64,000 nt of DNA from a virus (Duplodnaviria > Heunggongvirae > Uroviricota > Caudoviricetes), in the IMG/VR virus record IMGVR_UViG_3300032167_000002, positions 88,286-152,285 of that record; one strand, 5' to 3'. A program made the position numbers and the translations under genes. The notes below the pieces were generated by a model. It did not search any database and was not told where the DNA came from. It was given only the letters and a program-made list of their open reading frames with translations. Position 1 is the first letter of the stretch. Every line of letters begins with the position of its first letter. This document shows, one piece after another, positions 1 to 27,716 of the stretch.

Positions 1-2892
1 GCCAAAAAAGCTAAAGATAACGGAGAGATAACTCAAGAAGAATATCAAAAGTTATTTGATGAGCTTTATGCTAAAGAGCAAGAGAAAAAATACTATGCAA
101 TGACTACATTAAAAACTGCTAGTATTGGAAGAGGTTTCTCTATTAATGACAAAGATTATGAATTAACCATAGAACAATATAATGCTATTTTAAATGAATT
201 AGATGAATATATTTTAGCAGAAACTTATGATGGTGAATTAAAAACTGATGCTGAAGGTAGAAAATTTAATTATAAGAGTAGATATGGTACTCTTTCTAAA
301 GCTTTACAAGAGTTTGAGGCTCAAGGTCATAAAGTTCTTGGAGATTCAGAAGAAGCTAGTGATGTTACTTTAACTGAAGTTGAGGTTACAAATCAAAGTC
401 ATATTCGTTTAGATGTTAAATCTCCTTATTTCTATATTATTAGCGAATAGGGTAAACGTATTTTAAATATTGGTGATGGCACTGGATTTGACTTTGAAGA
501 TTATCCATATTTACAATATTCAATTGAAAAGTTCCAGCGAGATAAAGATGGAACAATTCTTTTAGTTAATTTAACTGATGAAACTGGTTCAACTATTAAA
601 ATTGAAGATATAGATGAGGCTAAAGAATTATTAAATTCTGAATGTTCAATTTTAAGAAGTGATGCTTATAATCGTTTTTAGATAAAAAAGAGCATTACTC
701 AAAAAGATTATGATAATATTTGTTTAGATATTGAGGATTATCGTACTAAGAAATTAGCATATTTAAATACTTGGACAGAAGAAAATGCTGAAACTTTTAT
801 TGATAAGACTTATGAAGTTGAATATATTCAAAAAACTGGTTTTATTGGTACTGGTACACAAAAAACGAATTGGCTTGAACCTTATGGAAGAAACCTTTCT
901 AAAGGTTATTATTTAAAATCTAATGATTTTACTTATACTGCTTTTAGTAAAGAGGATGGTATTGCAAGCGGTCAAGGTTCAGGCTTTTTACTTGATTTAA
1001 CAAATGGACACATTAATGCAGCAAATTTAAGCATTGCTTCAAAAAATGTATTTATTGATTCTGGTAAAAATGCTGACCCATTTTTTATTATTAAAGATAA
1101 TGATGGATGTAATTTAATTTATGCTGGACAATAGGATTTTTATATTCAATCTCATACATATTCAAGATATGCTCTTGGAGATAGGCTAACTGATGATAAT
1201 GGTAAACAATATTATTATCCAGGTATGAAAATTGATACTGATGGAAATAATTTTTTATTTGATATTAGAGGTAATTATCAATCAATAGTAAATATTAATA
1301 AGGATGAATTTTTCCTGCAAACTGATAATTATAAAATTCGAGAATATATTACTATAACAAAGTGTTATAATCAAGATTATAGTATGAGTTTTGATATACA
1401 GGTCGGTAAAGCTGAAAAAGGACATATTATTTATACTGCACCAAATTTTAATAAAAAAAGTGAAAATGTTACGACTGAAGAACATACTTCTATTACTTTA
1501 TATGAAAGTAAAAAAATTGATGGAATAATGTGGTATAAAATTAACACTGAGCAATGGATACCAGCATTATCTTTTGAATCGATTGAGGTAAATGATGAAG
1601 GTATTGGTACTGGTATAACTTATTTAAACCAAATTATTTATAGCGATTCTGATTATAATTCTATTAAAGTTGGTTTTACCAAAGATTCTCATGTTGCAGG
1701 TGTTAATATTTAGGCAACTAGAGCAGTTGATGGAGTAGAGTGGTATGCTATTGAAGTACTTGAAGTTGAACATTGGCTACCTGATTATTCTATTAAAACT
1801 GGTTCTTATGGTTCTGGTATTAGATTGGATTTGTAGGGTGGCTATATTGATGCTTATGATTTTATTATTCGAGGTGAATCTAGCACAGACCCCACTGCAG
1901 GTTCTTATTTATTATTAGATAGTTAGACTCCGCAATTTGTAGTTCATTTAACTACTCCAGACAGTGATGGTATAATTGATTTAGATTTAATTAAAATTTC
2001 TCCAGATGAATTTTATTTACATTCTGCAAATTGGTTAGAAACTACTACTCAAGTCACCACTTAGCGGACAGCTAAGATGGACGGCGGCTGGAATATTAGA
2101 AGCGGTCCTGGTATGGATTATTCTATTATCGGTTATTCTTCAAGTGGAAAAAGAGTGGTTGTATATGAAAAGCAGGGAGATTGGTACTGTATCGGAGAAG
2201 ACTAGTGGATTTGGTATGAAGGTTTAACTGATTTTCAAGAAGGTGGAACCGCAAATAAAACTTATGGCACTGGCATGGAAATTGATTTAAATGATGGTCG
2301 TATTACTGCATACAATGCCAATAATGCGGGTAAAGAATTATTAATTAATTCATTACATGATACATATCCAATTTAGCTAGGAGAAATTGGAGATTATAAT
2401 TTCCAAATTGGTTGGGATGGTAGTTTAAAGGGCGGTAGTATTTATGGTTGGAGTATTGATGCAAGTGGTACTGCTACGTTTAATCGTTTGAATGCTAATG
2501 GTGGTGTTTTAAGTTGGATGTCTATCGGCAGTGCTAATATTTATGATGTTGATATTACTTCTGGCACAATTGCAGGTATGGACTTCACTACTGGAGGCAT
2601 TACTGCAGGAGATTGGAATTTTAGTTCTAATGGATTAAGTCATAATGGAAAAGCAATGGAAAAGAAAACTTATGATTCAGTGCGCTATATGTCTTTATGG
2701 ACAAAAAAAATACCAGTAAGTGTTAGCGGTAGTTGCTCAATCGAAATTGATGGAGCTACTTATTATGGCTCATGCTCTGCTAGTGGAAATACTACTGAAG
2801 ATGTAGGTTATAGAATTGGTTATGTAAAAATGATTTATAATGGATATGGAGAAGAAGGTCAAGAGTCTGCAGTTGTATTTACACCAGCATAA
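1..2892 (+). CDS. 5'-partial tail-associated protein (at least 963 aa) with a bacterial SH3 (SH3b) cell-wall-binding-like domain (NIRSGPGMDYSIIGYSSSGKRVVVYEKQGDWYCI). Nine in-frame TAG codons at 448, 679, 1132, 1711, 1834, 1924, 2062, 2203 and 2374 are read as sense. Stop is TAA at 2890.
   Basis: Frame 1 checked codon by codon from 1 to 2892. It contains no TAA or TGA, only 9 TAG. The three same-frame track ORFs (100..450, 1225..1713, 2488..2892) are pieces of one gene. SH3b motif recognised by eye. Confidence 0.7.
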
Positions 2893-2901
2893 GGAGGATT
2901 T

Positions 2902-3270
2902 ATGACAAATTTAGAAATTTTAAATTTTAATGAATTATATAAACAAAATTTTCAAGAATTTGATGAATTATTACCAGCAAAAATTTTGTTTTATATTTAT
3001 AAAAATTTATCATTAATTGAAATATCATTACATCATATTGAAAATACTAGAAATAGTATTATTCGTAAATATGGTTTAATTGATGAATCAAAAGATACTA
3101 TTCAAATTCCTCCAGAATTAGTAAATGAAGCTAATAAGGAATTAGAAGAAGTTTTAAAAATGGAATAGGAAATTAATTTTTTTTTAATTCCTCTTTCATG
3201 GTTTGATAATATCAATCTTAATCCAAAGCATATGAAATTATTATGGATTATGATTGATGAAAATAAATAA
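2902..3270 (+). CDS. Small hypothetical protein (122 aa with TAG at 3166 read through), paralogue of the following gene.
   Basis: RBS AAGGAGGA upstream. Frame 1 continues past TAG 3166 to TAA 3268. The extended C-terminus (LLWIMIDENK) matches the paralogue C-terminus (ALMFMID). The TAG aligns to CAG (Gln) in the paralogue. Confidence 0.6.
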
Positions 3271-3284
3271 AGGAGAAAAAGGTT

Positions 3285-3653
3285 ATGACTATGACAAACT
3301 TTGAAATTTACAATATCGCTAAAGCTATGAGTGACGCCTTCCAGGATGGCACTCAGTATCTACCCGTTAAAGTAAATTTTTTCATTCAGAAGAATAAAGC
3401 TACTTTAATGTCTTTAGCACAAGATATTGATAATTCTCGTATTGAGATTGTTAAGAATTATGGTACTATGGATGAAGAATCCAATCAGTTTATTGTACCA
3501 GAAGATAAGATTGAAGCTGCTAACGCAGAGTTGATGGACCTGTTTAATATTGAGCAGGAAGTTGATATTCGTAAGGTAAGCATTGATTCTTTCCCCGAAG
3601 ATATTAATCTAACCACTGCTCAAATGGAAGCTTTAATGTTTATGATTGACTAA
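3285..3653 (+). CDS. Small hypothetical protein (122 aa), paralogue of 2902..3270.
   Basis: Intact ORF with RBS AAAGGAGAAAAAGG. N-terminal MTNxEIxN and C-terminal AN.EL... similarity to the upstream gene. Confidence 0.65.
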   Translation: MTMTNFEIYNIAKAMSDAFQDGTQYLPVKVNFFIQKNKATLMSLAQDIDNSRIEIVKNYGTMDEESNQFIVPEDKIEAANAELMDLFNIEQEVDIRKVSIDSFPEDINLTTAQMEALMFMID

Positions 3654-3693
3654 TAAATATTAGGCCAGGTAAATTCTTACCTGGCCTAACTTA

Positions 3694-6678
3694 TTGCAGA
3701 GAGAAAGGAGATTAATGATGTCAACTACTAAGTTATACCCTCCTTATGTGGATGCCGCAGTTCCTGCGCAGTTGGTTCCCGATGAAAGTACATCAGAAAC
3801 AACTGTAACACTTACTATTCCATTTCAATTAAATAAGGCAGTAAGTTGGGTAGATTTAAAATCAAAAAATAATATCGCTTTGATTTTGAAAACGGTATCA
3901 ACAGGAAAAGTTTTATTAGATTGTTATAAAGGAAACGTTTTAACTCATTATGAACCTACTGGAACACCTGCCGCAGAATTTGAAATTCCTAAAACTACTT
4001 TTAATCCTGTTGCAGGATAGTTTTATAAAGCTCAAATCGCTTTCATAGATTCTGATGATACTATTGGATATTTTTCAGATGTGACTATTGTAAAATTTAC
4101 TGCAATTCCTGTTATAGGTATTGCCGATTTAGCAAGTGGAACAAATGCTGCTCAATATGTTTATACAGGTACATTTTCAACTACTGATGTTACTGAAAAA
4201 GTATACTCATATGAATTTAATATTTATGATTGTGAAACTGGTATTTTGCATGACACAAGCGGAGTTATGATTCATAATAGTAGCACAGATGTTGAACGAG
4301 GAAAATCTTTTGACACTTGGACATCTTATAAAACTTTAATTAATGAGCGTCAATATTCTATATGTTATAAAATCACTACTATTAATGGTTTAGTGATGGA
4401 AACTCCAGCTTATGGAATAATGGCAGTTGAAACTTTAGATTTAGTTTCTAGAAACACAGAATTTATTGCAACATTATATAGTGATGATGCTTATATTCAT
4501 GTTCATATTATGCCAAAAGATATTGATGCAAATATTAAAGCAATTACTGGTAATTTTATTTTAGTTAGAGCATCCAGTGAAGATGGATTTGGTAGCTGGA
4601 ATGAAATTTATCGTTTCACTTTGATTAATAACTATCCTTTAATGACACTGTGGAAAGATTTTACGGTGCAACAAGGATATTCATATAAATATGCTGTACA
4701 AGCCTATAATTCTAAAGGTGTTTATTCTAATCGATTAGAATGTAAATATTATGCTAGTGAATTTGATGAGCGCAATGATGACATTAACCGTTAGAATTGG
4801 AACGCAGAAGCAAAAGACCCTATTGAAAATACTAACTTAAATTGGAATTATTTACAAGAAATTGATGGGTCTCCAACTCAAAGCGGATTGCCAGTAGATT
4901 TTGAAGATGCTTTTCTTTATGATGGAAAACGCCAATTGAGAATTAGATATAATCCAAAAATTAGTTCTTTTAAATCAACTGTGCTTGAAACTAAAATGGA
5001 TACTATTGGAGGTAAATATCCTTTTATTTTCCGTAACGGAAATGTTGAATATAAAGAATTCCCAATTTCTGGTTTAATTACAATGATTAGCGATGAAAAT
5101 GCTTTATTTATGGAGTATTCCAAAGAGAATCCAAAAGCTCGTCAGTACAGTACACATCCGCCATATGGTAATGATAATGCGGATTGGTGGGTCAGCCGAA
5201 CTGGTATGACGGAGTATGAAGTTCGTAAGACCCAAGAAAAAGAGTTAAGTGGTTCTCCCACAGCATTAACCGCTAGCAACTTCCGCAAAGAGCGTGAATT
5301 TAAAATGGAAGTGTTGGATTGGTTAACAAATGGACAACCAAAGCTATTCCGTTCTCCAAGTGAAGGTAATTTTATTGTTCGTTTAATGAATACATCATTA
5401 ACTCCAAATGATTAGCTTGGACGATTATTACATACTTTCCAATGTACTGCATATGAAATTGCGGAATGTAATTATGAAAATTTGGAAAAATATAAATTTA
5501 TTCATGCTCTCGATACTAGTTATTAGGAATTGAAATTTAAAATGCTTGATTGCAATAATACTTTTGCTGACATTCATAATAGACAAATTATTATTGAGGG
5601 TGGTGCTTATTACTTTGCAGTAATAGACCAATGGAGTTATTTGGCATTGAGAATTACTTATGTAAATGGTACATCACAAGTTATTGATGTTGGTAACTCT
5701 ACTGGACAATATTTGTTTGACAGAGAAGCATTAAAAAATAACCCAATTGTTTCAGTAACTTATCAAGAAGGTGCGCCAGATGTTGGTAGTAAAATTCTTT
5801 ATGGATATTATGATACATCAGATATTGCTTTCTCTTTGATTGCAAGTGTTACAAGAGAAACAGTAGTAGACCAAATTATCGGTCATCCGCAAACTTCTTA
5901 CCGTATAGATAGTTTTAAAATTAATTATGTTCCAACTATTTTAAATGGCATTGGATATAGAGACTTGGCTACAGATTTACAAAAGGTTTATGGCGAAGAT
6001 GAAATTCCTCGTTGTACTCTTGGTAAATTTTATTACTTAAAAGCTGAACCCAGAGAGATTACTTTCGTTTATAAAAAAGAAAATAAATATTATGAAACTT
6101 CAAAATGTGATTATGAGGTTCGTCAATGGGATGATACTTATATTTATAAAGTTTTCGAAGAAAGTGATGGCACTTGGGAACCTACGAATCAATATAGTGG
6201 ACGTCCTTCAAATAATATCTTATTACCAGAGCCAAGTTATCTCATTAAATTAAATGCAAAACCCAATAATGGTATTGACCCTGCTCAAGAAGAGTTTGTG
6301 GATTTAAGTTTAAAGGGCGGTAGCGGAGGTAATGCTCCTATTACTACTGGACGATATGAACTTTATTTTGATTTGGATAAAGTAGAAAGTTTATATATTG
6401 GCTCAGGAGTTGTATGTGAAATTTGTTATAATTTAAATACAATTCATTATGAAGCTGAAGATAATATTCAATATAGTGAATTGGTTGATAGATATAATAC
6501 TTGGCAAAATCAGCAACGTCAATATAAGAGTATGTTAAAAGCTGGATATAGTAGATTTAGTGCTGATGTCGAACGCGCTCGTATGAATATGGAACAAAGT
6601 TATCATTAGTATTTAAATCAGTTAGAATATATTCTAAATAAGTTGCAAATGGATGGTGAGACTTATTATGCTTTATGA
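3694..6678 (+). CDS. Large tail/baseplate structural protein (about 994 aa). Five in-frame TAG codons at 4018, 4792, 5413, 5524 and 6607. Stop is TGA at 6676.
   Basis: Five same-frame (frame 1) track ORFs (3694..4020, 4081..4794, 4888..5415, 5530..6609) are contiguous through TAG only. Codons verified manually across every junction. RBS AGAGAAAGGAG upstream of 3694. Confidence 0.65.
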
Positions 6679-9310
6679 TAAAGAATTTTTGAAAGAATTA
6701 GACAAAACAAAAAATAAAATTGTCTATGCAAAAGTTACTGCATTAACAGTAGAGGAGTCCCCCATTGAAAGCATTGAAGGTCGTGTAACCCAGGGCTCCA
6801 TCAACTTAGATGGAGCTTCTGCGGTTCGTCGTTCTTGTTCTTTATCAATTGTAGCAGAGAATTTTGATTATTCAGATTATTTATGGGGAATGAATACAAA
6901 ATTTAAGTTAGAAGTTGGTTTACAAAATGATATAAATGATAATTTTCCCAAGATTATTTGGTTTAACCAGGGAATTTATATCATAACATCTTTTAATACA
7001 TCTAGAACTACCAATAACTTTACTATTACTATTCAAGGAAAAGATAAGATGTGTCTTTTGAATGGAGAAGTAAGTGGTACTATTGGAGTACAAACAGATT
7101 TTGGTACAATTGAAGAAGAAGATAATGAAGGAACTTGGACTATTAGACAAATTCCTATTCCTGAAATTATCCGTAATATGGTTCATGCATATGGCGGAGA
7201 GCCTTATCATAATATTATTATTAAAGATTTGGATACTTTAGGCTTAGAGCTTTTAGAATATCGATATGAAAATATGCCTTTAGTTATGTATCGTAAAGCT
7301 GAAAGTAATACATATACAAATATTGCTTTTTTAGATAGTGATATGTATTTATATGCTAATAAAAATGATGTCGGAAATGTAGATAGACGAGTATATTTAA
7401 AAGATATTCCCGATACACATTTTGAACAATTAATTGATGGTATTCATACAAGTGACCCTATTGTATATTATGATGATGATAAAGTTGGTTATAAATTAAC
7501 TAAGCTTCAATACGGAGATACCGCAGGTTATCGAACAACTGAATTAACATATGCTGGAGACTTGATTGCAAACGTAGGTGAATCAATTACTTCAGTTCTT
7601 GATAAAATTAAAAATATGCTTGTTGAATTTGAATATTTTTATGATGTTGATGGACGTTTTATATTCCAGAAGAAACAATCTTATACTCAGACTCTATGGT
7701 CTCCAAGTGGTGATGGAGAAGAGGGAATCACAGAAGGTTTGTTATGGAGTGATGCAGCCGCATATACTTTTAGTGGCAGCGAATTAATCACTGGTTTTAA
7801 TAATAATCCTAATCTTTTGAATTTAAGAAATGATTTTTCAATTTGGGGTGAGCGCACAGGCATTAGCGGCGCGCAGATTCCCATTCATTTAAGATATGCC
7901 ATTGATGAAAAACCAACTGCTTATACAACTATTTCTTTAACTGATTTTGATAAGAATGAAGTGGATGAATATAATTTAAAATATGGAACTAATTTAAATA
8001 ATAATCCTACTTCAATTACTTATTCTATTCACCCAAATATAAGTAGAGCTAAGAATTATGTTTATGTAACCGATTGGCGAGAAGTATTGTTCCAAATGGC
8101 AAAAGATTATTTTAGATATAATACTTTAAGTGATTTTGAAATTCGTGTGCGCGAAGCTAATCCAACGCTCTATCCCTCTGGCCGCACAGGCTATGAACAA
8201 TATTATACTGATATTCAAGTTTGCTGGCGTTAGCTATATAATCCTGAATTACGAAATAAAATTGCGGATTATACAGAAGAAGTTGCGGCATTAACGAATG
8301 AAGTGACTCAATTAGATAAAGAAATTAAAGATATTGAGAATAGAATTATTGAGTTGAATAATCAATTAAATACTGCTACAACTCAGAGTTCAATTGATAG
8401 TATTGTTTTATCAATTTTATCAGAGCAACAATCTCGCACTGATAAAAAAGCATTAAAATCTCAAAAAGAATATCTTATCGAACAAAAATAGGAAAGCTTA
8501 GATTCTTATAATGAAGATATTTTAAATTATTATCAAGCTCAAGAATTAATAGAATTAGATGTAAATTTATTTACTACTCAATTCCCCTTATCTGACAGTT
8601 AGATTACTATTGATATTTTAGATAGATTTAGAGTTCCAAAAAATTTAATTGATGAACTTTTAGATGAGAAAACCGGTGAACCAATTGCTATTAAAGTTAG
8701 TGATATCCTTTACTTTAAAGAAGATGATAGTTATTTTTCTGTTATTAATAGTTTTGATGATTATGTAATAATTGCATATTATGATAAATCTCGTCTACAT
8801 TGGCATAAAAATGTTTTTGAGAATCCTGGCAATTTAAATTATTGGTTTGACTTTTTAGATACCGCAGGAGAGCTAAGCCAATATAGCGTACGAGCTATTG
8901 GAGCACGGACGAAAGCTATTAATGAAAATACCGTAAAATCCATTTATTTTAGGGAAACTCCACCAGTTATTTTCGCACCAGATATTACTGATGACGAAAA
9001 AATGAGTGGTTATAAATATATTCAAATTCCAGAATTTGAAATGGATAAAATGTTTAGTATTAGTGCGCAAGGTAAATCCGCAAAAGAGCGCTTAGATGAA
9101 CTTCTTTACAATCATGGTTATTGTACAGAAAGTGCAACTATTACAACAATTCCAGTATATTATTTACAACCAAACACTCGTATTAAAGTATCTGATGAAA
9201 AAACTAAAATTGATGGAGAATACATTGTAAGTAAACTTACAATTCCTTTAGCACATAACGGAACTATGTAGTTAACTACAACGAAAGCTGCATAGACACT
9301 ATTCTTTTAA
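6653..9310 (+). CDS. Tail structural protein (about 885 aa), possibly a siphovirus-type distal-tail/endopeptidase-tail-like protein. TAG at 8231, 8489, 8600, 9269 and 9293 read through. Stop is TAA at 9308. Start is either ATG 6653 or ATG 6668.
   Basis: Frame 2 ORFs 6653..8233, 8303..8491 and 9002..9271 are joined by TAG-only gaps, verified codon by codon. Overlaps the stop of the upstream gene. Confidence 0.6.
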
Positions 9311-9322
9311 GAGAGGAGAGGT

Positions 9323-9661
9323 TTGATGAAAAAGATATATCAATATCGTTATTATGGTAATTCTGATAAGAATTATCCGAAAACTCTAAATGCAGTACAA
9401 TTAACCAATGGTGAAATTTTTAATCAAACCAGTAAGGGTTCCATTACTCATTTGGGTTTACAAGCTTCTCCAGGGACTACATTTTTTTTGAATCGTTGTG
9501 ATAATCCAATTCAAATTGGAAAAACTGGCATCTACGAGATAGATGTTACTGGTTATGGTTATATTACAAGCATTATGTTTAGTGATGATACACTAGCATT
9601 AGTAAATGAAGATAATGGAATTATTATTGATATTATATATGAAGGAGGTACTATCGAATGA
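9323..9661 (+). CDS. Hypothetical protein (112 aa).
   Basis: Intact ORF with RBS AGAGGAGAGG and TGA stop. No amber codons. Confidence 0.6.
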   Translation: MMKKIYQYRYYGNSDKNYPKTLNAVQLTNGEIFNQTSKGSITHLGLQASPGTTFFLNRCDNPIQIGKTGIYEIDVTGYGYITSIMFSDDTLALVNEDNGIIIDIIYEGGTIE

Positions 9662-10845
9662 GCAGCTTTTATGGTTAGATGCGATGGCAAGATTTTCAAT
9701 AGTTCTTCTTAAATTTCACTCTTGAGAATAAACATTTCTCAATTGATAATATTTTTAACACTTCCCCTCCATATGAAAATCAAATGACAATTGATTCGAC
9801 TATGAAGGCATATATTCAACCCAATGAAGATTTTGCCACATTTAGATTTAATGCAGCAAATCATTGGATTAAATTTGCGCCAATTGATTCTTAGGGGGAT
9901 GAAAAAACAACTTATGTTGGTTTTTCAATTTTTCATAATAAACCAAGCTTGGAAAACACCTATACTCTCCCAATTTTTGAAATAACAGTTCCACCTCAAG
10001 GCGCAACAATTGAAACCCTTGAGAGTGGAGAATGCTTTAAGATTGCTTGTCCTGCCTTTGATTAGGCAGGACATTTCGTAGGTGAGGACCATATAGAGCC
10101 AACCTATTTTAAAATGCCAGAGCAATTGATTCAAATTAATCAATCTGGTAATGACTTAGTTCTAACAGCTGAAAAGAAATTCCATTTTGCGAACACAGAT
10201 GGTTTAATTGAACTATTATTAAATGACGCAAAAAATAAATTAACTTTTTAGCATAAAACAAACTTCAATGACAACGAAGAGCCTGACTTTACTCCATTTT
10301 TATACGAAGGTAGTAAAGATGGTACTCAATATGAAGTTGAAATTGTATTGCAACCTGGTGATTTTATTTCAACTTATCATACGGTTTACGATAAAGCGGG
10401 TCATTTAACTACATTAGAAAAAATTTATTATCAATTACCAATTAGTGAAGTTGATTCTCGTATTGAAGTATTAGAAAATACTGTTGCTGAAATTCAAGGC
10501 GACCTTGAAAATATGGCAGGAGATATTGAGACTTTAACTGAAGATTTAGAAGATGCTATAAAAGATGTACAAAGAGCAAATGAAATGGTTGGTACTGATG
10601 CTGAGTTTGGTAGAGGAGACCAAGCCGCAAAAGAAGATTCTTTTAATGCTTGGGTTAAGGCTTTTACAGGAACAACTCAAAATTATCAATCTTTATCAGG
10701 AGCTCTTTCTGCAGTACTTGAAAAATTATCTTCTAATAATACTGATTTAGATAATGAAATGCGTAACTTCTATTCTCGTATTATTGCTATTGAAGATTAT
10801 TTAGATGGTAAGTTTACCGATTATGAGCCTCCAAAGAGAAGCTAA
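9658..10845 (+). CDS. Coiled-coil virion protein (395 aa) with TAG at 9676, 9700, 9892, 10063 and 10249 read through. C-terminal heptad-like region (EVLENTVAEIQGDLENMAGDIETLTEDLEDAIKD).
   Basis: ATG 9658 overlaps the TGA of the upstream gene (ATGA) and is preceded by GAAGGAGG at the proper spacing. Frame 1 is open to TAA 10843 with only TAG interruptions, translated manually. The track shows only the last 165 aa. Confidence 0.6.
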
Positions 10846-10910
10846 TATGCGTAATTTCTTTCTTTTAAGAAATTAAGATATAATATACTTTTAAGAAAGG
10901 AGAGAATATT

Positions 10911-12392
10911 TTGGCAAATTATGTAAAATTTATGCGTGGTACTCCAAAAGCCTATGAAATGCTTTTAGCCAGTCCAGAGAAACCAAATGTTGATACTCTG
11001 TATTTTATTTCCGAAGCAGATTCAACTAATGCGGTTTTATATTTGGGTGAAAAGCTAATTGCGGGCGGAGGGGGAGCCGCAGGTAAAATTAGTTTAAGTG
11101 AATTAACTGATATTGCTTTAAGTACAGATTTAGCTGATAAGTCTATTTTAGTATATGATACTGCTTCTGGTAAATGGGTTGATTCTACATTAGAACAAGC
11201 TATTTCTGTTTTTATCGGTGCTAGTAAAGATGCCGCAGGTACAGCTGGACTTGTTCCTGCTCCTGGATATGGAGAAACCAATAAGTTTTTACGTAGTGAC
11301 GGCACTTGGGTATCTATTGACAGTTCAGAAGCAACTATTATCACTATTGAAAATGAAGATAGTGAAGTCATGCATCAAGAGTTAATTGACCAAACCACAC
11401 AAGGATGGTTGCCATGTGCTGGTGATATTATCATTATTAAAGATATTATTATCAATGATAAATGGCAATATACTTCTTATGTATATAATGGTTCTACATG
11501 GGCAGCCATGGATGGAAACTATAATGCTGAAAATGTGTATTTTGATTCTGATTTCACATTTACAACTCCAGTTGGTACAGTCACTATTCCTTCTACTGGT
11601 AGTAAAGTAGTGGATGCCGCAGGAATGAATATTAAGGATTTCTTAGCAAGTATTTTTGCAGAAGAACAAAATCCTACTACGACAAAACCCTCTATTGCTT
11701 TCACTAAACCTTCTAGTGATGCTTCTTATGAAGTTGGAACTAAAGTAACTCCAGAATATGCATTAAGTTTCAATAGCGGCTCTTATACTTATAATACAAG
11801 CACTGGTGTTACTGCTACTGGATGGAATGTTAGTGATGGAACAACCACTCGTACTACTCAAAGTGGTACAATGGAAGAAATTCAAGTTATTGATAATATG
11901 AATTATAAAATGACTGCAACAGCTACTTATTCAGATGGTATTATTCCTTCTACCAATTTAGGCAAGGAATATGCTGATGGACAAATTAAAGCTGGAACCA
12001 CCAGTTCTAAAACTTCTAAATCCATTACTGGATATAGACAATGTTTCGCTGGTGGAGATTCTACTGGAAGTGAATTAACTTCTGCTTTTATCCGAGACAA
12101 TTTAGCTGGAAAAGGCAACGGCGCTTCTAATAGAACTATTACTTGGGCCGCAAGTGATTTAGCTGGTATGAAGCGTTATATTATTGCGCTTCCTGTGAGC
12201 GGTGGTAAGAGCGTTACATCTGCAATTATTACTTCAAGTATGAATGCAGATGCTACTGCAGATTATGTAAAACAAACCGCAACTGTTGAGGTTGAAGGTG
12301 CAAATGGATATACTGCAGTCGATTATAATATTTGGATTTATGCACCTGCTTCTATTGCAAGTACAGAAGTGCATAGTGTTACAATTGGATAA
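10911..12392 (+). CDS. Tail fibre/structural protein (493 aa) with no amber codons. Contains the FLRSDGTWVSI motif common in phage fibre proteins.
   Basis: Intact ORF with RBS AAAGGAGAG and TAA stop. Confidence 0.6.
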   Translation: MANYVKFMRGTPKAYEMLLASPEKPNVDTLYFISEADSTNAVLYLGEKLIAGGGGAAGKISLSELTDIALSTDLADKSILVYDTASGKWVDSTLEQAISVFIGASKDAAGTAGLVPAPGYGETNKFLRSDGTWVSIDSSEATIITIENEDSEVMHQELIDQTTQGWLPCAGDIIIIKDIIINDKWQYTSYVYNGSTWAAMDGNYNAENVYFDSDFTFTTPVGTVTIPSTGSKVVDAAGMNIKDFLASIFAEEQNPTTTKPSIAFTKPSSDASYEVGTKVTPEYALSFNSGSYTYNTSTGVTATGWNVSDGTTTRTTQSGTMEEIQVIDNMNYKMTATATYSDGIIPSTNLGKEYADGQIKAGTTSSKTSKSITGYRQCFAGGDSTGSELTSAFIRDNLAGKGNGASNRTITWAASDLAGMKRYIIALPVSGGKSVTSAIITSSMNADATADYVKQTATVEVEGANGYTAVDYNIWIYAPASIASTEVHSVTIG

Positions 12393-12406
12393 GGAGGACC
12401 TGAGAT

Positions 12407-13924
12407 ATGGCTGTAATTAAAAAAGACGGCAACTTCATGGGCCTTCCTATGAATGTTGCGAGAGGTAATCCAATTCCTCTTGATAAAAGTGAAATTTGGT
12501 ACTCTTATGATGCAATGGAATTATATGCGCAAACCGACCCTGTCGCATATGTAGGTCAGATTCTAGGTTTAGTAGACGAGGCCGCAGGCACCGCTACTGC
12601 GTATATCATTCTAAATACCGCAGGTGAACTCCAAGAGATTGGAGCATCTGTTGATATTCCATCTTTAAAAGGAGATAATTCTTCTATTGTTATTAGCAAT
12701 GAAATTATTGCCTTAAAGAACTGGGGTGTGCAATATTATAAATATGTTGCCGCAACTGAAACTACTGAAGCTGAATATGTCCTTCAAGTCGTTGACGATG
12801 AGAATCCTTGGATTAGTGGTTTAGAGCCAAAAGTCGCCAGCGAAAATGGACAAATGGTATTAGCTTGGTATCAACCAAACCCAACTACCATTGAAGGTTT
12901 AGGCAGTTAGTTATCTTCTTTACAAACTTCTGTAAGCGATTTACAAAAGAATACTTATACTAAAACTGAAGTTGATGAGAAGATTGCGGATGCTGGTCAT
13001 TTAAAGCGAATTATCGTTAATTCTGTGGATGATATTAATGTTAATGCCGCAGATGCTGACCAATATATTTATATGGTATTAACTTCTCCTGAGGATGAAG
13101 CTGACAAGTATGATGAATACATGGTTATTATCTATGAGGATGAAACTGGTACAGAAGTTCGTTATGCTGAAAAAGTTGGTTCTTGGGAAGTTGATTTAAG
13201 TAATTATGTTACTAAAAATGCGCTACAAACCGAACTTAATAAGAAAGTTGATGCTGAAGAAGGCTATTCTTTAATTTCTGATGAAGAGAAAGCTAAATTA
13301 GAAGGCATTTAGGAAGGCGCGCAAAAGAATTATATTACATCTGTTGATTCTACAAATTTTGCAGTTGAAGCTGGTAAGCTTTTATTGCAAGGAATTACTG
13401 TTGCACAAGTTCAAAATTTACAATCACTTTTGGACGCGAAGGTAAATAAAGAAGAGGGTAAAGGATTATCTTCTAATGATTTCACAGATGAACATATTCA
13501 AATTATTCAAGGTAATACTGCTAATATTCAAACTCAAGGTAATAAAATTATTACCATTGAAAATGTATTGAATGATACAGAGATTGATGGTATTGTTACT
13601 CCTGGTTTGATTACTAAAGTAAATAATTTAAGTGTTGCTGTTCAAACTAACACTGATAATATTTCAACTAATGCAGGAAAAATTTTAACCTTAGAAGGTA
13701 CGGTAGCAACGTAGGGTAATGCTATTACTTTATTGCAAAAAGATGTTAGTGATTTAAAAACTAAGGTAAATGCAATTGATTTAACTAAATATGTTACTAC
13801 TGAAATTTTCCAAGCTACAGTTGGTAACCTTGAAGAATTACAACAAAATCAAAAGACACTTCACACTCAGGTAAAAGAAATTCAAGAAGCTATTACTTGG
13901 GGTGAAATTAAAATTAATGCTTAA
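12407..13924 (+). CDS. Tail-fibre protein with coiled-coil and fibre repeats (about 505 aa). TAG at 12908, 13310 and 13712 read through. Contains a GKGLSSNDFTDE tail-fibre-repeat-like motif.
   Basis: Four frame-2 track ORFs (12407..12910, 13025..13312, 13385..13714, 13733..13924) are joined through TAG only. The real stop is TAA at 13922. RBS AAGGAGGA. Confidence 0.65.
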
Positions 13925-13941
13925 GAAAGGGGAAAACTATA

Positions 13942-15663
13942 ATGGCAGATACTAATGTTATCACTATTGCTGATAATTCTCAGATTAAGTTTTTACATGG
14001 TTTACAAACCGCATTAGATGCTAAGAGAACCGCCCGTTCTGGCGAAAGCGGCACTTTCTACTTAACCAATGATACTCATAGATTATATGTTGGTTTAAGT
14101 GATGGTAGCATCGAAGCTGTTAATGAAGGTATTACTACTTACGCTACCGTGGAGGTCTTACCAACTGCAACTGCTTTAAATGCTGGTCAATTCGTTTATA
14201 TTACAGCTGATTCTATTTTAGCTGTTTCCAATGGTCAAAATTGGGTTCAAATTAATGCCAATACAGATACCAATTATACTTATGGCGGTCTAGTCACAGG
14301 AGAGCAGACAGGAACTGTTACTGTAACAACTACTTTAACAGAAATTGGTGAAGGTAATAGAAAACCTTCTTTCGCTTTCTCTTTAACTGGTAAAAATGGT
14401 ATTACTATTGTTGAAGGTACAACAGATGGTACTATTGAAGTATATGGTACTAAATTAGCCAGCGAAAATATGGCTCAAGATAATGCTGCAAAGATTAAGT
14501 TAGTTAATGAAGCTGGCGTACAGCAAAGTGCAGTTGTTATTCAGGGTGGTACCAATGTTACTGTTAGCGAAGATAATGGCGTAATTGGAATCACTGCTGC
14601 TGACACTAAATTAGATGGTAACACTCATACAGCAACCGCTCATGCTTGGGACCCCAAAGATGAGACCAATAAGCCTGGTGGATTTACTGTAACAGTTAAA
14701 GATACTGCTAATAGAAGTTCTAGTAGCACATTTAATCCTGCAATTAAATATGGTGGTAGTGGCACTTCTACTGCTAAGTTCAGCAATGGTACTGCGACTT
14801 TAGATGTATATACTAAAGCAGAAGTTGATGCTTTAAGAGCAGACTTTGACGCAATGGAATATCAGGGTGTTGTTAATAGCATTCCTACTGGTTCCATTAA
14901 GAAAGGTTATACTTATAAAGTTGGTCAAGCTTTTGATGTAACAGTTAAAACCGATACTGGTACTGAAGAGATTACAGTACAGCCTGGTGACTTATTGATT
15001 GCAGAAGGCACTGAAGGTACCAATGGATTCTTAACTACTGTACAATGGGGTTATGTTCCTTCTGGTAATGAAGATACCACTTACTCTGTTGGTTTATTGA
15101 CTCCAGCAAATGGTGGTGGTATTCAATTATTAGAAAAGAAAACTGGCACTACTACTGGTACTAATGCTGGCTCTATTTCTGTATTAAGTGGAAATTGTAT
15201 TACTGTAAGTCCAAGTTCAGACACTGCTTCTAAGGCAATGTCACTGACTATTAATCATAATGCGGTAAGTACTACTGACCCAGCTAGAGATACCACTGGT
15301 ACTTTAAATAATCCTACTCTTGGCACCGATTATGTTGCTAAGTCAGAAGATATTGTTATTATTGATGCCTCTAAGGGCGAAAATGGTATTGATAGAGACA
15401 ATTATGGTCATGTACAGAAAGTATATACCAAGACCGTTAAAGTCTATGATACTAATGCTCGTTTAACTGGAATGACTTCCAGTGTATCTAGTGACACTGC
15501 TAAGACTAAGGCTACTGTTTCTATTAAGGGTCAAGTAACTGGCTCTAAGAATCAAAAGAGTGAGCAAACTGCTACTTTCTATGTTGAGTCTACTCATAGT
15601 AACTTGCAGGTAAGTAGCTCTGGCTCTAGCGTTCAGATGTCTCTGGTTTGGGGCACTTTCTAA
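13942..15663 (+). CDS. Virion structural protein (573 aa, Thr/Gly-rich) with no amber codons, followed by a strong terminator. Possibly an abundant tail or fibre component.
   Basis: Intact ORF with RBS AAGAAAGGGGAAAA and TAA stop. Terminator hairpin about 70 nt downstream. Confidence 0.55.
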   Translation: MADTNVITIADNSQIKFLHGLQTALDAKRTARSGESGTFYLTNDTHRLYVGLSDGSIEAVNEGITTYATVEVLPTATALNAGQFVYITADSILAVSNGQNWVQINANTDTNYTYGGLVTGEQTGTVTVTTTLTEIGEGNRKPSFAFSLTGKNGITIVEGTTDGTIEVYGTKLASENMAQDNAAKIKLVNEAGVQQSAVVIQGGTNVTVSEDNGVIGITAADTKLDGNTHTATAHAWDPKDETNKPGGFTVTVKDTANRSSSSTFNPAIKYGGSGTSTAKFSNGTATLDVYTKAEVDALRADFDAMEYQGVVNSIPTGSIKKGYTYKVGQAFDVTVKTDTGTEEITVQPGDLLIAEGTEGTNGFLTTVQWGYVPSGNEDTTYSVGLLTPANGGGIQLLEKKTGTTTGTNAGSISVLSGNCITVSPSSDTASKAMSLTINHNAVSTTDPARDTTGTLNNPTLGTDYVAKSEDIVIIDASKGENGIDRDNYGHVQKVYTKTVKVYDTNARLTGMTSSVSSDTAKTKATVSIKGQVTGSKNQKSEQTATFYVESTHSNLQVSSSGSSVQMSLVWGTF

Positions 15664-15728
15664 TTTGAGGACAAAAGGTATTAAGAAGATTATTTCGATT
15701 TTTAATTAAAAATAGAGGATAATCTAAT

Positions 15729-15767
15729 AGGTGGGAAGAAGATTATTCTTCTCACCTATTTTTTTGT
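15729..15767 (+). terminator. Rho-independent terminator: AGGTGGGAAGAAG / CTTCTCACCT stem followed by a T-run.
   Basis: Inverted repeat followed by ATTTTTTTG, read directly. Confidence 0.6.
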
Positions 15768-15796
15768 TTATAAAGGAAAGAAAGGAGTTTAAATAA

Positions 15797-18700
15797 ATGA
15801 GTGAAAATTATGGCGTAAAATTTATTCCCGTCCGTGGTTATGACAGTAAGATTCAGCGTGCTGAAGTAAAAGATGGATGGATTTATTTTGCTACTGACTC
15901 AGGTAAGATTTATGTCGATAGCCAGGGCCAAAGAACTATTATGGGTTCTGCGGGCGCCGCAATTTACTATGGTGAAGTTGAGAAACCAGAAGTAAATGAA
16001 GATACGGGCTATGCAACACTTCCTAAGAGCGCTGTTAAAGGCGACCCTAAGAAAGGCGACCTAATCTTAAATTCCGATGGCGGTTTCTATAAAGTTGAAT
16101 TAATTGGTGAAGAAAACTATACTTGTGAATTGCTTTCTATTAGCGGCACAGGCGGTGGTCCCGGTGTTTCTACTACTACTCGTCCATCAATCACTTTAAC
16201 TCTTGACAATACTAACTTCATTAATGGTCAAGAGGCTTATTTCCATATCCATGCAGAGTCTGCTTTAGAGGCAGATGGTGTGACTCCTGTAGATACTACA
16301 TTGAATGTTGTATATTCTTTGGGTACTCGTATTTCCGACGAGGTTATTGATAACTATACTACTCAAACTCGTACTTATAAGACTGGTGAATCTGACTATG
16401 AGGGCGTTCCCGGTATTATTGATGACTATATTGAAATTGGTTCTCTATTAAGAGAGTCCTCTTCTAGTGTGTTGTCTGTTTATGTTCAAGGTGCAAATCA
16501 TGACGAAAAGAGCCGTACTAGAACTGTTGACTTATCAACTTCTGCATTAAAGTTATCTCAAGTTTCCGGTTATAACCCAGCTACTAGATATCCTACTTCT
16601 GGATTCCAAATTAAGTGCGGAGTTGTTGGTTCTTTATCTAAGGTCTTAGATTTCTACTATGATGATATGAATACTCCTGCTGAAACTCGTGTTATCGAGG
16701 CTAACGTAGCTAATAGTACTCAGACATTTACAGTAGGTACAGACAAAGCAACTCACGGATATCACACTGTTCGTATTGAGCTGTGGCAGAACACTGGTAC
16801 TTCCAGTAATCCTAAGAGAGGCTTAGGAGTTGCTCCACTACAGTACGAAATCGCAGTTATTGAAACAAGTAACGCAAATGCTAAACCAGTAATTTGGTTG
16901 GGTGATTATAAGGCTGAATATTATAATTACGATACTATTCAAATCCCATTCTTAGTATGGGACCCCGCAAATACCAACTCTACTAAAGTGCATTTGTATA
17001 AAAATAATATTGAATTAGAAAGCTCTCCTCGTGAAGTTAAGGATTTCTCTAAATTTGATTATTGGGAAATCGCTGATGCAGAAATGAATGCTTTAAATAG
17101 CTATCAAATTTCTTGCGGCGAGACTGATGAAAAATTTGTAAAGAGAGAAATTGAGTTTAAGGTTGTTAAAGACCCTAATCGTGATATGACTGTTGAGCAA
17201 GCAGGATTGTTATTAGACTTCTCTGCTACTGGACGTTCTAATTCTGAGTCCGCAGCTAAGAGACAGTTGTGGAGCTACACTTTGAATGGTGAAAAGAAAA
17301 ACGCCATTTTCGAAAACTTTAACTGGTATAATAACGGTTGGATGATGGATTCAAGCATTAACCAGTCTTGTTTAAGAATTAGTAATGGTGCTAGATTAAC
17401 TATTCCATTCCAGCAGATGGTATTTGCTGCCGGTGTTAGTGGACAAGAGTCTCACACTGTTGAAATGCAATTCCGCATTCGCAATGTTCAAAAATATGAT
17501 AATTTAATTACCAATATTACTCGTTATCAAGGTGACGGTGTTTGGTATGAAGCTTTTAAAGCTCAAAAAGATACTGGCTATTCTAACTATGATGCTTACT
17601 TACAAGCAACTTTAGACCCAGACACTTATGATAATTTAAAATTCCAAACTGTTGAAAAGAATATTAACATTACTAATGTTGCCGCAGGTCTATATGATTA
17701 TGATGCAACCAATGTTAAAGCTACTGGTTTCTGCGTAGGCACTCAGGACGCTTTCTTCTCAAACGGTGAAAATACTGTTAACGTAAACTTCGTTGAAGAT
17801 GAGTTAATTAATTTAAGTTTTGTATATCAAGATAGCTTAAAATATTTATATATCTATATCAATGGTGTTATTACTGGTGTTATTAAGTCTACTGACCCTG
17901 ACGCCTTTACAATTAATAGTGGAAACTTTGTTTTTGATTCTAGTAATTGTGACATTGATTTATATAAATTGAGAATTTATAATTCTGATTTAAATGTTAA
18001 TCAGATTGTACAAAATTTCTCTGTTGACCGCAAGAACGTAAAAATCTTTGACCAAAGTAATGCTTATGCATTGGCTGAGGAGAATAATAACTTGAAAGAG
18101 TTCCAGTTCTCTTATGAAGCTATGCTAAGATATAATGAAGCTCATCCTAATGAACCTTTGATGCCTTATATCATTTACGATACTGGTAATGCTACTTTAC
18201 CATATAGTAAAGACGATACTAAATACATTAGTGTTGAATTTGTTAATACCAATTTGGAAAGAGCATATGCTAATGGTGAATTAGAGACTTTGGCTCGTGC
18301 CGATGGCTTAATCGCAGAAGGCGAAACTGATAGTGATAAAATTAAAGAAGGCGTTCGCTTGTACTACAAGCATCATTGCCCATCTTGGATTTCCACTATG
18401 ACTTCTGGAGATAAGGTTGAATTTGCTGTTCAGGGTACTTCTTCTGAGTTCTATCCTCGTCGTAATTACAAGATTAAGACTAAGGTAGAAGGAGAATTTA
18501 ACTGGAAACCAATCGCAGACTTTACCGATAAGGAGAAGGCTGAATTAAAACCAGAAGAGCTTGAAAAATTAAATGCTGAGAGCGGTTTATATATGGAAGA
18601 AGATTCTTTAAATATCTTCTTAAACCGTGGACCTTATGCTGAAGTTTTCGTTTCTGATAAAGCTAAGTTAGCACAAGATAGTAAATATCTTGGACATGAA

Positions 18701-21700
18701 GAGTGTCGTTGTGCTGATGGTTGGTATATGAATAACTATACTAACGGAACTGATAGATGGACTATGAAAGTTGACTATATGGAATCTTCTGGTTCTTATA
18801 ATGCAGGTTTCGCATCTATGGTTGGTAATGGTTATACTAAGCATCCTTTACAAGACTATTTAGCTTTATTAAATAATACCAATAAATTGGAACCTGTTGT
18901 TGATAGCTCTGTAATTAAGGGTATTCAATGGGGCGATTATCGTACTTCTCTATTGGGCTTCCCAGTTATGGCTTTCCAAAAGACTGGTTCTGGTGATAAT
19001 GCTAAGTACACTTTCATCGGTTTTTATCGTATGCTATTGGATAAGAGCTCTACTCAGGTCTTAGGATTTAAACCTAGTAAGAAAGTTACTAATAAGTTAT
19101 TCCCTAAGGGTTTAAATGATGAAGGTAAAATGGAATATAAGGCAGTACGAGACGTAGCAGAATGTTGGGAGTTCTCTAACAATGCTCGTGGTTATTGCTC
19201 TTATCGTGACCCATGGAGCCGTGTTGAATTAAGTTTCACACCTCCTACTAATTCCACTGTATCTAATGGTGGTTACAATGCTAATGAAGCTCCTGTTGTG
19301 GCTAATAGCTTTGAATATCGCTATCACAGCAAGGATGATTATATTGATATTCTTTACAACTTTAAGCAAGCTACTCAAGGTGAACTTGATGAAGTTGCTG
19401 AAGAGTTAGGAACTGGTACAATTCCTAAGGGCGATTTAGAGGCCGGTGCTAAGGCATTGCTATCTACTCATACTAACTGGGAAAAAGTATGTAAATGGTT
19501 GTGGAGTACTAATCTTGATGCAGTTGTTTCTCAAGGTACTTACTCTAAAGTTCCTGTCGGTGATACCGCATATGAGCCTGGTGTTTACTATGTAGTTGAT
19601 GGTGATTCTTACGCTATTAGTAATGCCGACTTTGATGAAAACACTACCTACTATGTAAAGAGTGAAGTCAACTATGATGTTATCTCTTTAACTGCAGAGA
19701 CTTATATTTCTGGTAAATATTACATCTTAAATGCTGATGGTGAATATGTAATTGATGCAAGCACTTTTGATGCAAATAAGATTTATTATGAGCAGGTTAT
19801 TGAAGACCGCTACATTCCAGTTAATGTATGTCCTGCTGAGTATGTATATGTAAAAGGTAAGTTCTATGTATTAACTGCTGGTGGAAACACTGTAAGCACT
19901 ACTGATGATGTTTATGCATTATCTAATGAAGAATTTGCTGGTGGTACTACTTACTACGAATTTAAAGATGATACTCTAGACACTCTAAATTCTCGTTTTG
20001 ACTTACTGATTGCTCCAGTAGATATTGAGAATGCTACTTATGATGCTAATACTCAGTATTATACTTGGCATGGTATGGACTATGATATGAACGACGCTGC
20101 TAATGGTGTTGTTATTAACCCAGGTCATCCAACCGGTGCAGTCCGCGCGGTCGAAACTCCTTCTCAAGAGGATTGGGCTAAGGGATTATATTATGTAGCA
20201 GCTCCAAAAGAATATGCTGGTAAGGTTTATACTCACGATACTAAAGAATATCGTGCTGCTAAATTTACTAATGAATTTGAAGACCACTTCGACCCTGAGT
20301 ACGTTGCTACTTACTTCGTAATGACTGAAGTTATGGAGTTATACGACTCTCGTGGTAAGAACTGTATGATGGCCTCTTGGGGTCCTCATGAAGCTGGTGG
20401 AGAGTACATCTGGTATCCAATCTTCTATGATATTGATACTCAGTTAGGTATTAACAATACTGGTATTCCTTCATTCGAATTCAATGTTGATGCTACTGAA
20501 GCAGGTAACTTCTCTACTTCTGATAGTATCTTGTGGAACAACTTCTATAAGTTCTTTAAAGACACTTGGATTGTTCCTAAATATAGAAACTTAAGAGGTA
20601 ATGATACTCCTAAGTTTGCTAAATTATTAAATGCAGACGGAACTAGTAAAGCTCCTTTACAGTCTGTTGATTATATTGAAAAGTGGTATACTTTTAATCC
20701 TGATGCAACTAATAATATTGCTTGTGAAGGCGAGCGTCCATTATTAGCTACTAATTTGGATATGTACTTTAAGTATATTACTATTTGTAACCCCAAAGCA
20801 AAAGAAGAGGGCGTTGCTCACTTGGGCGGCGAAGGTTCTGGTGGTGCGTTCGCTGAACCAGACACCGGCACTTACTTCTATGCTTTACAAGGTGACCGTT
20901 CTCAATCTCGTCAGCAGTTCGTTGGAAATCGTCTTGAGTACATTGACTCTTGGTTGACCCAAGGTAACTATGCTCGTGGTGGTGCGAACCGTCTATGGGG
21001 TCGTATTTCTGCTAACAACAGAAGTGACCTTGACTCTGATATTACTGATGTTCACTCTGATAAATGGACCAATAGCGTTGATGACCCATATTGGGTAAAC
21101 AATGTACCTTTTGGAACCAAGACTCACGAGTTTGACTCTGAATATTGGATTGAACCTACTCCAATTCGAAGCGCATATGTTACTGCTGGTGATGACAGTA
21201 TGAACTATCCTTCTAAGAAATATGATGGTATCCATAAGATGCAATTCGTATTAAATGAATTGGAAAATGGTATTAAAAATAGTGACAACTATCCTGAACA
21301 GTTGTTATATATTTATGGTACTAACCAAATGTCTGATTTCGGTGACTTAAGTAAGATGTATTGGACTGAGTTTAAACTTGAGGGTAAGGCTGATAAGCTA
21401 ACTCGCTTGAAGCTTGGTCATGATGGTACTACCATTGACTATAAAGATAGTAATGCAAGTACTAAGACTGAAATTGGTTGGTATAATAAGAAGTTAAATG
21501 GTATTACAGTACCTACTTCACTACCTCTATTAAAAGAAGTTAACTTCTGTAATATTGGTCTAGTAAATGAAACTGCTCTTGATTTTAGCTCTTCTGAAAA
21601 GATGGAAAACTTCAGAGCTACTGGTGCAAGTAACTTAACTTCTGTTACATTTGCAGATGGTGTTGCGTTAAATACTTTGTATTTGCCTGCATCCGTTGGT

Positions 21701-23848: not shown

Positions 23849-23864
23849 TAAAGGAGGATAAAAA

Positions 23865-24074
23865 ATGACTAAACAAGTTTTATATACTTACTTAGGTACT
23901 AATGGTACTATTTGTTCTCCTGTGCATTTAGAAGATGTTTATTATATTAGAAAATATCGTCTAACTGCAGACCAGGGTAAGCGTTTGACTTGCGATGGCA
24001 AGACTTACCATGATACCGTAGTAATTCCAGAAGCTGACCTTCCTCTTTGGAAAGAAGTTGCTGGACAGAAATAA
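23865..24074 (+). CDS. Small hypothetical protein (69 aa).
   Basis: RBS AAAGGAGGA and TAA stop. Confidence 0.5.
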   Translation: MTKQVLYTYLGTNGTICSPVHLEDVYYIRKYRLTADQGKRLTCDGKTYHDTVVIPEADLPLWKEVAGQK

Positions 24075-24107
24075 TTTAATTATTTAATTAAATTATCAAA
24101 ATAATAG

Positions 24108-24130
24108 AGGGAGAGAGTAATCTCTCCCTC
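24108..24130 (+). other. Perfect 10-bp stem hairpin (GAGGGAGAGA-GTAA-TCTCTCCCTC) without a T-tract. Possible transcript-stability or attenuator element between genes.
   Basis: Read directly from the sequence. Confidence 0.4.
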
Positions 24131-24160
24131 GCAAATTTAAAGAAAGGATGATATTTAGAA

Positions 24161-26092: not shown

Positions 26093-26113
26093 TAACTTGA
26101 AAGGAGAGGTAAA

Positions 26114-26701
26114 ATGATTATTTCAACCGAAGAATATTATAAGTATCTTGCTTATATTCAATCAAACAATCGGCCAACAATTGCTATTTTACCTTCGTCT
26201 GAAAAAGTCTACAATATTGACTTAAAAACTCGTCAAATTGAAACGCCAGAGTATCTGAGTGTTGAACATGACCATAAATCTGAAACGGTCTATTTTAAAG
26301 TAGACCGTTTCTTTGATTATATGGACTTGTCACAAACAGTATGCATCGTTCAATATGTAACCGCAGATAATAAGGCTCGCATTTATGCAGTACCTTTTTA
26401 TGATGTTACTTCTTATGCTGACGAGGAAAAAATGTTGATTCCTTGGTGTATTGATGGCGGTGCAACTGCGGTCGCAGGTACAGTCCAATATTCAATTCGA
26501 TTCTACAAGGTTGATGAAGTAGGACAGCAATTTATTTATAACTTAAACACTCGTCCAACAAAGAGTAAAGTATTATATGGTATGGATGTTCAAAAAATTA
26601 ATCATGATTATGATTTAGCTCCTACTGTATATGATGAAATTATCCAAAAGTTGGATGAATTTAGTGAAGCTTTAGGTAGCTTCTGGGAAGAGTTATATTG
26701 A
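26114..26701 (+). CDS. Baseplate/tail protein (195 aa), paralogous to the N-terminus of 24161..26092.
   Basis: Intact ORF with RBS AAAGGAGAGG and TGA stop followed by a terminator. Confidence 0.55.
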   Translation: MIISTEEYYKYLAYIQSNNRPTIAILPSSEKVYNIDLKTRQIETPEYLSVEHDHKSETVYFKVDRFFDYMDLSQTVCIVQYVTADNKARIYAVPFYDVTSYADEEKMLIPWCIDGGATAVAGTVQYSIRFYKVDEVGQQFIYNLNTRPTKSKVLYGMDVQKINHDYDLAPTVYDEIIQKLDEFSEALGSFWEELY

Positions 26702-26709
26702 TAGTTTTA

Positions 26710-26741
26710 GGGAGAGATTTTATATCTCTCCCTTTTTTTTA
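26710..26741 (+). terminator. Rho-independent terminator (GGGAGAGAT...ATCTCTCCC plus T8).
   Basis: Hairpin plus TTTTTTTT, read directly. Confidence 0.65.
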
Positions 26742-26819
26742 TTTGGCCCAAAAGGGAAAAATAGATTATTTTAAATCTCAGTATTAATAGAACAAATTAG
26801 AGGGAAAGGAGGCAGTTTC

Positions 26820-27704: not shown

Positions 27705-27716
27705 GGTGGTGGCAAT

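Follow-up and report, generated by a model that had tools for sequence, protein, structure and literature searches.

Suppressor-dependent expression of TAG-bearing genes is a published model for stop-codon-recoded phages, in which a bias of TAG toward structural over replication genes has also been reported (Borges et al., bioRxiv 10.1101/2021.08.26.457843). Some of the recoded phages have no detectable suppressor tRNAs (bioRxiv 10.1101/2021.08.26.457843; PMC10607447). In a crAss-like phage, a mass-spectrometry peptide spans both a Gln encoded by a recoded TAG and the Met of the code 11 start (Peters et al. 2022, PMC9523058, Fig. 3B), the same TAG-Gln/Met configuration as in the genes considered here. 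A further recoded phage, phAss-1 from human gut (proposed Phassvirus; Babkin et al. 2023, PMC10607447), uses TAG as Gln in 41 ORFs and has a predicted Clostridia host.

The window, by which we mean the whole stretch of DNA that was analyzed, is a 64-kb fragment of a large TAG-recoded gut phage. With code 15 gut phages (crAss-like, Lak, Jade/Sapphire/Agate) it shares in-frame TAGs in conserved genes, the alignment of TAG with Gln, TAA/TGA stops, a denser recoding of structural genes and an origin in gut metagenomes. Related contigs, derived from human and animal gut metagenomes, reach about 160–220 kb, which is close to the reported sizes of Jade and Sapphire. The window differs from these phages in that neither a suppressor tRNA nor a release factor was seen in its available sequence. 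Moreover, crAss and Lak phages infect Bacteroidetes, whereas the AGGAGG ribosome-binding sites of the window point to a Firmicutes-type host. In a tblastn search with the PolIIIα of the window, that of phAss-1 was one of the top hits (38% identity at 100% query coverage); the identity is also 38% to the homologs in SPbeta-like Bacillus phages and in Enterococcus phages. However, phAss-1 is distant kin, having no DNA-level match to the window and no tblastn match for one of the genes discussed below (gene 9658), and it carries three tRNA-Sup(CTA) genes (PMC10607447), of which no counterpart was detected in the window. The likeness to SPbeta-like Bacillus phages (SPBc2, phi3T) lies in the replication module and includes PolIIIα (yorL) as well as the YorF and YorH Pfam families, which are present in an orthologous locus. 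In contrast to the window, the SPbeta phages use the standard code, and they show no detectable similarity to the structural genes that we examined. Searches for other relatives gave no match for window positions 9000–20000 against GenBank phages (megablast) or for the gene 9658 protein against phages (tblastn). IMG/VR scans with this protein and with an alignment revealed no relatives either, although the back-translated patterns used may possibly miss TAG-encoded Gln.

The window is made up of two blocks. The plus-strand block (100..41893) codes for virion, tail and receptor-binding-type proteins. It includes Laminin_G_3 domains and a 2683-aa LRR-like protein, with SH3_3 and Flg_new domains found in the orthologs. 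The minus-strand block (41939..63900) is devoted to replication and nucleotide metabolism, and contains PolIIIα, NrdD, guanylate kinase, dUTPase, a PIF1/UvrD-type helicase, DnaB, AAA_24 and YorF/YorH-like genes. At the left end, ORF 100–2892 (plus strand) encodes the C-terminal portion of a ~2300-aa protein (SH3_3, weak match) that begins upstream of the window; this portion has nine in-frame TAGs. Two adjoining 122-aa genes at 2902–3270 and 3285–3653 (plus strand) look like tandem paralogs judging from their similar N-terminal sequence and length, and the relatives L003 and L005 have a single called copy at this locus (here and below, orthologous loci are referred to by such labels).

We asked how TAG is read in the window as a whole. 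ORFs of at least 100 aa cover 79% of the sequence under code 11, 81% if TGA is taken as sense and 94.5% if TAG is taken as sense. When ORFs are defined with TAG as sense, the 40 curated genes terminate with TAA (30 genes) or TGA (10 genes) and none with TAG; their lengths agree with those of homologs, and the TAG-sense ORFs are matched by full-length homologs. In-frame TAGs, 57 in total, occur in 17 of the 40 genes and are scattered over gene length. The homologs in databases had been called under an alternative code, and we therefore went back to the nucleotide sequences of the orthologous loci. Among 21 ortholog sets, the codons aligned to TAG were CAA/CAG in 86 cases, Glu codons in 15 and Lys codons in 12, the Gln identity of TAG being drawn here from relatives that are mostly recoded too. 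For guanylate kinase, the alignment to PDB homologs is continuous across its four TAGs; the RuvC-like protein had no match in PDB. Taken at the level of sequence, these data indicate that TAG is reassigned from stop to Gln genome-wide (genetic code 15 type), which is a known phenomenon.

The density of recoding differs between the two blocks. Of the Gln-type codons, 44 of 388 are TAG in the plus-strand structural block versus 13 of 232 in the minus-strand replication block. PolIIIα (49086–53048, minus strand, 1320 aa), NrdD (46016–48223, minus strand, 735 aa) and DnaB have no in-frame TAG at all. The gene for the 2683-aa LRR-like virion protein (15797–23848, plus strand) is also TAG-free despite its heavily recoded structural neighbors. 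Within the replication module, in-frame TAGs were found in the minus-strand genes for guanylate kinase (48309–48878, four TAGs), a RuvC-like protein (43155–43640, three), a RecJ/DHH-like protein (56068–57804, two), a YorH-like protein (61210–61869, one) and a 199-aa protein (41939–42538, two). Since replication genes carry TAGs, recoding is not limited to late genes, and suppression would be needed already at the time when these genes are expressed.

The relatives of the window are not uniform in this respect. Locus L015 (ena:ERZ28633733 TONG22-1 scaffold_156), syntenic with window positions 24161–35219, has no in-frame TAG in its 10 called genes and has one TAG-terminated gene. It thus appears to be on the standard code, unlike its TAG-recoded sister lineages. 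In L012, the ortholog of gene 26820 (see below) is free of TAG, yet there are 21 TAGs across four other genes. L021 (jgi:3300024303 Ga0257089_10000596) represents the same phage as window positions 49–64 kb, and its JGI standard-code annotation splits genes at TAGs: DHFR is broken into fragments of 65 and 92 aa, the YorH-like protein is cut to 185 aa and the RecJ-like protein to 481 aa.

Against this background we considered three plus-strand genes of the virion module, designated here by their start positions, in which TAGs lie shortly after the start codon. A first-pass annotation of the window had interpreted them as having amber-gated N-terminal extensions. The positions on which that interpretation was built proved accurate: gene 9658 has TAG as its 7th and 15th codons, gene 39048 as its 21st and 26th, and gene 26820 as its 10th, in-frame ATGs are found at 9679 and 39126, and the ribosome-binding site (RBS) at 9658 is good. 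The list of TAGs was incomplete, however, as it left out codons 79, 136 and 198 of gene 9658 as well as codons 59 and 233 of gene 26820.

Gene 9658 (9658..10845) codes, with TAG read as Gln, for a 395-aa protein of the structural module with a C-terminal coiled coil. Its ATG at 9658 is preceded by AGGAGG (9643–9648) at a 9-nt spacing and forms an ATGA overlap with the stop of the preceding gene. The 31 full-length homologs, some as divergent as 32% identity, keep the N-terminus MSSFYGQMRWQDFQQFF, and M1 and Q7 do not vary among them. In the first six codons, those before the first TAG, all differences among the orthologous loci are synonymous. Codon 7 (9676..9678) is TAG in L001–L004 and CAG in L005, and the corresponding residue is Gln in 30 of 30 homologs. 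The in-frame ATG that follows (9679..9681) has no RBS and codes for Met8, an internal residue rather than a start; it belongs to the conserved GQMRW motif and is Met in 29 of 30 homologs. Codon 15 (9700..9702), which we also assign to Gln, is TAG in L001, CAG in L003/L004 and CAA in L005, and at this position the homologs have either Gln (18) or Arg (12). The remaining TAGs occupy less conserved positions. Codon 79 (9892..9894) falls at a variable position, codon 136 (10063..10065) corresponds to K/E/Q in homologs, and codon 198 (10249..10251) is CAA in L001 and L003, with Gln in 13 of 30 homologs.

Gene 39048 (39048..39488) codes for a 146-aa protein of the phrog_21718 family with a Gln/Pro/Tyr-rich N-terminal tail. 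The start at 39048 has AGGAG at 39034–39038 with a 9-nt spacer, and this arrangement is kept in orthologs. Of 27 homologs, 26 retain the N-terminal sequence MYSNYNYYPQQ, and the phrog profile extends over this region too, spanning residues 15–148 of a longer ORF that begins at 39006. An alternative start at 39006 was considered but rejected: its RBS is weak and the homologs begin at the Met of 39048. Both early TAGs align with Gln, that at codon 21 (39108..39110) in 25 of 27 homologs and that at codon 26 (39123..39125) in 26 of 27; in L006 and L009 the former is also TAG, while the latter is CAG. The in-frame ATG at 39126..39128 (Met27) lacks an RBS and is Met in 14 of 27 homologs, the others having V/I/Q/P/T. 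It is an artifactual start seen under the standard code, and the JGI code 11 call P0063 (120 aa) begins exactly there. In addition, orthologs have TAGs downstream of Met27, at codons 120 and 121 in L006 and at codon 94 in L009, and within the Gln-rich stretch itself L009 has TAGs at other Gln positions. The family as a whole is very large and widespread among phages (4568 database homologs, the distant ones including proteins of Clostridium perfringens phages) and combines a conserved core with a length-variable Gln/Pro/Tyr-rich tail in front of it.

Gene 26820 (26820..27704) codes for a Gly/Thr-rich protein of 294 aa that is probably fiber-like; the gene adjoins genes of the Laminin_G_3 receptor-binding type. 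It starts with GTG, and all sequenced relatives have ATG at the same position. The start is preceded by AGGAGG (26807–26812) with a 7-nt spacer, homologs start at the same position and the FK.G.Y..GKFDN block is conserved. Codon 10 (26847..26849), assigned to Gln, is TAG in L017, CAA in L018/L019 and TTA in L012. Codon 59 (26994..26996) is CAA in L017 and CGT/CGA in L018/L012, and it is followed by an ATG at 26997 (Met60). At codon 233 (27516..27518) TAG is present in L017 as well. Standard-code callers begin this gene at Met60 (P0154 and P0156, 235 aa), which lies inside a conserved motif and is kept in 19 of 21 homologs.

The contrast between the upstream starts and the internal ATGs is the same in all three genes. 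The Shine-Dalgarno score is 5–6 for the starts at 9658, 39048 and 26820, and 0 for the ATGs at 9679, 39117, 39126 and 26997; the RBS-like sequences that the first-pass annotation had proposed to look for before the internal ATGs are thus absent. Because of the strong Shine-Dalgarno sites and the conserved N-terminal peptides upstream of the TAGs, we consider the upstream starts to be real. Purifying selection has kept the residues upstream of the TAGs. Such conservation is, on comparative grounds, the counterpart of N-terminal peptides mapping only to the upstream start with Gln at the TAG positions, an outcome that had been named as evidence against isoforms. The 120-aa and 235-aa versions in databases are artifacts of standard-code calling.

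The functions of the three proteins are less clear, as no Pfam family was found for any of them and the PHROGs that matched have no functional name. AlphaFold models are of low confidence (mean pLDDT 60.9 and 54.5). The model for gene 9658 suggests a beta-rich middle part and a long C-terminal coiled coil, which would fit the place of this gene among tail/baseplate-like genes. For the gene 39048 product, in which residues 10–29 have pLDDT <50, the model suggests a disordered Gln-rich tail before a small beta domain.

The best explanation of these observations as a whole, to which we assign a probability of about 0.9 on the sequence evidence, is that the TAGs are ordinary Gln codons in true N-termini and are read through from the upstream starts. 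Ribosomes would initiate at the Shine-Dalgarno-preceded starts 9658, 39048 and 26820 and then read through the TAGs with the help of a tRNA having a CUA anticodon. This tRNA would presumably be encoded elsewhere in the phage genome and, by analogy with other recoded phages, receive its Gln from the GlnRS of the host. We infer the decoding agent because a suppressor tRNA was not found in the sequence searched: ARAGORN and Rfam revealed no tRNA of any kind, and no other Rfam family, in the window or in related loci totaling ~150 kb, and no suppressor tRNA in the 10 kb to the right of the window, with about one third of the ~160–200-kb genome visible. Under plain read-through, the downstream ATGs would be internal methionines that look like starts only to a standard-code ORF caller, and peptides such as SSFYGQMR, or others that span ...VTQQQSMYQMPYLR, would be expected with Gln at the TAG positions. 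All TAG-bearing genes would be completed only once suppression becomes available, a timing effect that we infer, and no position-specific device would be involved. The idea that these genes depend on suppression for their expression therefore holds as far as can be judged from the sequence, but it is not specific to N-termini, since it concerns every one of the 17 TAG-bearing genes.

Why, then, do the TAGs lie so close to the starts? One possible answer is selection: Gln-coding TAGs might be kept preferentially near 5′ ends, so that ribosomes translating before the suppressor is available abort early instead of producing long truncated proteins. To evaluate the positions of TAGs we shuffled, within each gene, which of its Gln-type codons (CAA, CAG or TAG) are TAG, without changing how many TAGs the gene has. 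The 40 window genes have 9 TAGs in their first 30 codons versus 7.0 expected (P=0.23), and windows of the first 15, 20 or 50 codons gave a similar outcome. Taken singly, the three genes also show no significant tendency toward an early TAG under this shuffle (P values of 0.23, 0.31 and 0.49). In seven related loci (90 genes, using the collection's own gene calls) the observed number is 14 versus 16.0 expected (P=0.80). It is only with a null that is blind to amino acid content, in which TAG may fall on any codon, that a weak excess emerges (9 versus 4.3 expected, P=0.02), and it arises because the N-termini are Gln-rich. In gene 9658, Gln occupies positions 7, 11, 14 and 15, and gene 39048 has eight Gln among its first 26 residues. 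Under plain read-through, the Gln-rich character of the three N-termini would likewise be the reason for TAGs near their starts. When the positions of Gln are allowed for, TAGs lie early no more often than expected by chance, and the clustering of TAGs after start codons, as originally proposed, does not exceed that expectation.

Several other observations bear on preferential retention near 5′ ends. There are RBS-supported minus-strand genes with an early TAG (at codons 14, 8, 20 and 12), and TAG7 of gene 9658 and TAG21 of gene 39048 are retained in relatives of 61–84% identity, as might be anticipated if early TAGs were maintained by selection. On the other hand, in Gln-type alignments early TAGs are retained no more than late ones (5/12 versus 11/39, Fisher P=0.48), and in many heavily recoded genes the first TAG lies past codon 100. 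The +4 nucleotide context of TAG is the same as that of CAA/CAG. Taking into account that the excess disappears under the within-gene shuffle and is not seen in related loci, we regard selection for early abortion as very unlikely.

Another alternative, put forward in the first-pass annotation, is that the early TAGs produce isoforms. An unsuppressed early TAG would terminate translation and the adjacent ATG would give rise to a shorter protein, the long and short forms being made at different times. In bacteria, termination-reinitiation at adjacent stop and start codons is known, and TAG is directly followed by ATG at 9676/9679, 39123/39126 and 26994/26997 as well as on the minus strand at 57663. 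However, such adjacency is no more common for TAG (4/66) than for CAA/CAG (19/588; Fisher P=0.28), and not one of the internal ATGs has an RBS. In gene 39048 of the window genome, a product starting at 39126 would indeed be TAG-free. Yet Met27 is missing from almost half of the homologs, and in orthologs further TAGs follow it. In gene 9658, since Met8 is followed by the TAG at codon 15, seven codons on, with three more TAGs later, a start at 9679 gives no TAG-free product. Gene 26820 similarly has a TAG at codon 233. The N-terminal peptides are moreover conserved as protein. A useful comparison is provided by the lambda S105/S107 holin-antiholin pair, in which alternative in-frame starts give long and short isoforms, both starts being served by the ribosome-binding region and having no stop between them. 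As in this system, the 5′ end of each gene considered here offers two candidate in-frame starts with few codons between them, but the downstream ATGs in the window have no RBS, are not all conserved and still face further TAGs. Long and short isoforms thus seem very improbable to us.

A related possibility is that the early TAGs act as a timing device, with translation stopping at codons 7–26 before the suppressor appears and with some reinitiation at the UAG-AUG junctions 9676/9679, 39123/39126 and 26994/26997. If this were true, a 120-aa core protein of the 39048 family would be made early without need of the suppressor, and the complete protein with its disordered Gln-rich tail would follow late. 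We give this possibility very little credence as well.

Finally, that the TAGs are real stops (in pseudogenes or fragmented genes, or through assembly errors) or encode pyrrolysine can practically be dismissed: the ORFs are broken under the standard code, as reflected in the JGI code 11 fragments P0063, P0154 and those of L021, but identical TAGs were recovered from separate samples (L001 and L002, L003 and L004, L017), protein conservation carries on across every TAG, 0 of the 40 genes need TAG as a stop, the codons that take the place of TAG are CAA/CAG, not those for Lys (Q 86 versus K 12), and TAGs are spread over unrelated structural genes, with no pyl-type families among the results of the Pfam scans performed.

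To sum up the case for plain read-through, the recoding itself, the Gln identity of TAG, the reality of the upstream starts and the absence of positional enrichment are demonstrated here by comparative analysis. We did not see a new mechanism, and the genes of the window are an ordinary instance of an already published phenomenon. The analysis nevertheless carries a methodological lesson, namely that tests on the position of recoded stops must be conditioned on the position of the corresponding amino acid. For annotation, it means that the standard code truncates such genes or adds false internal starts to them, while reading TAG as Gln restores their conserved N-termini. As for the phages themselves, the window adds one more lineage, of Firmicutes type and SPbeta/phAss-1-like, to the recoded phages of the gut.
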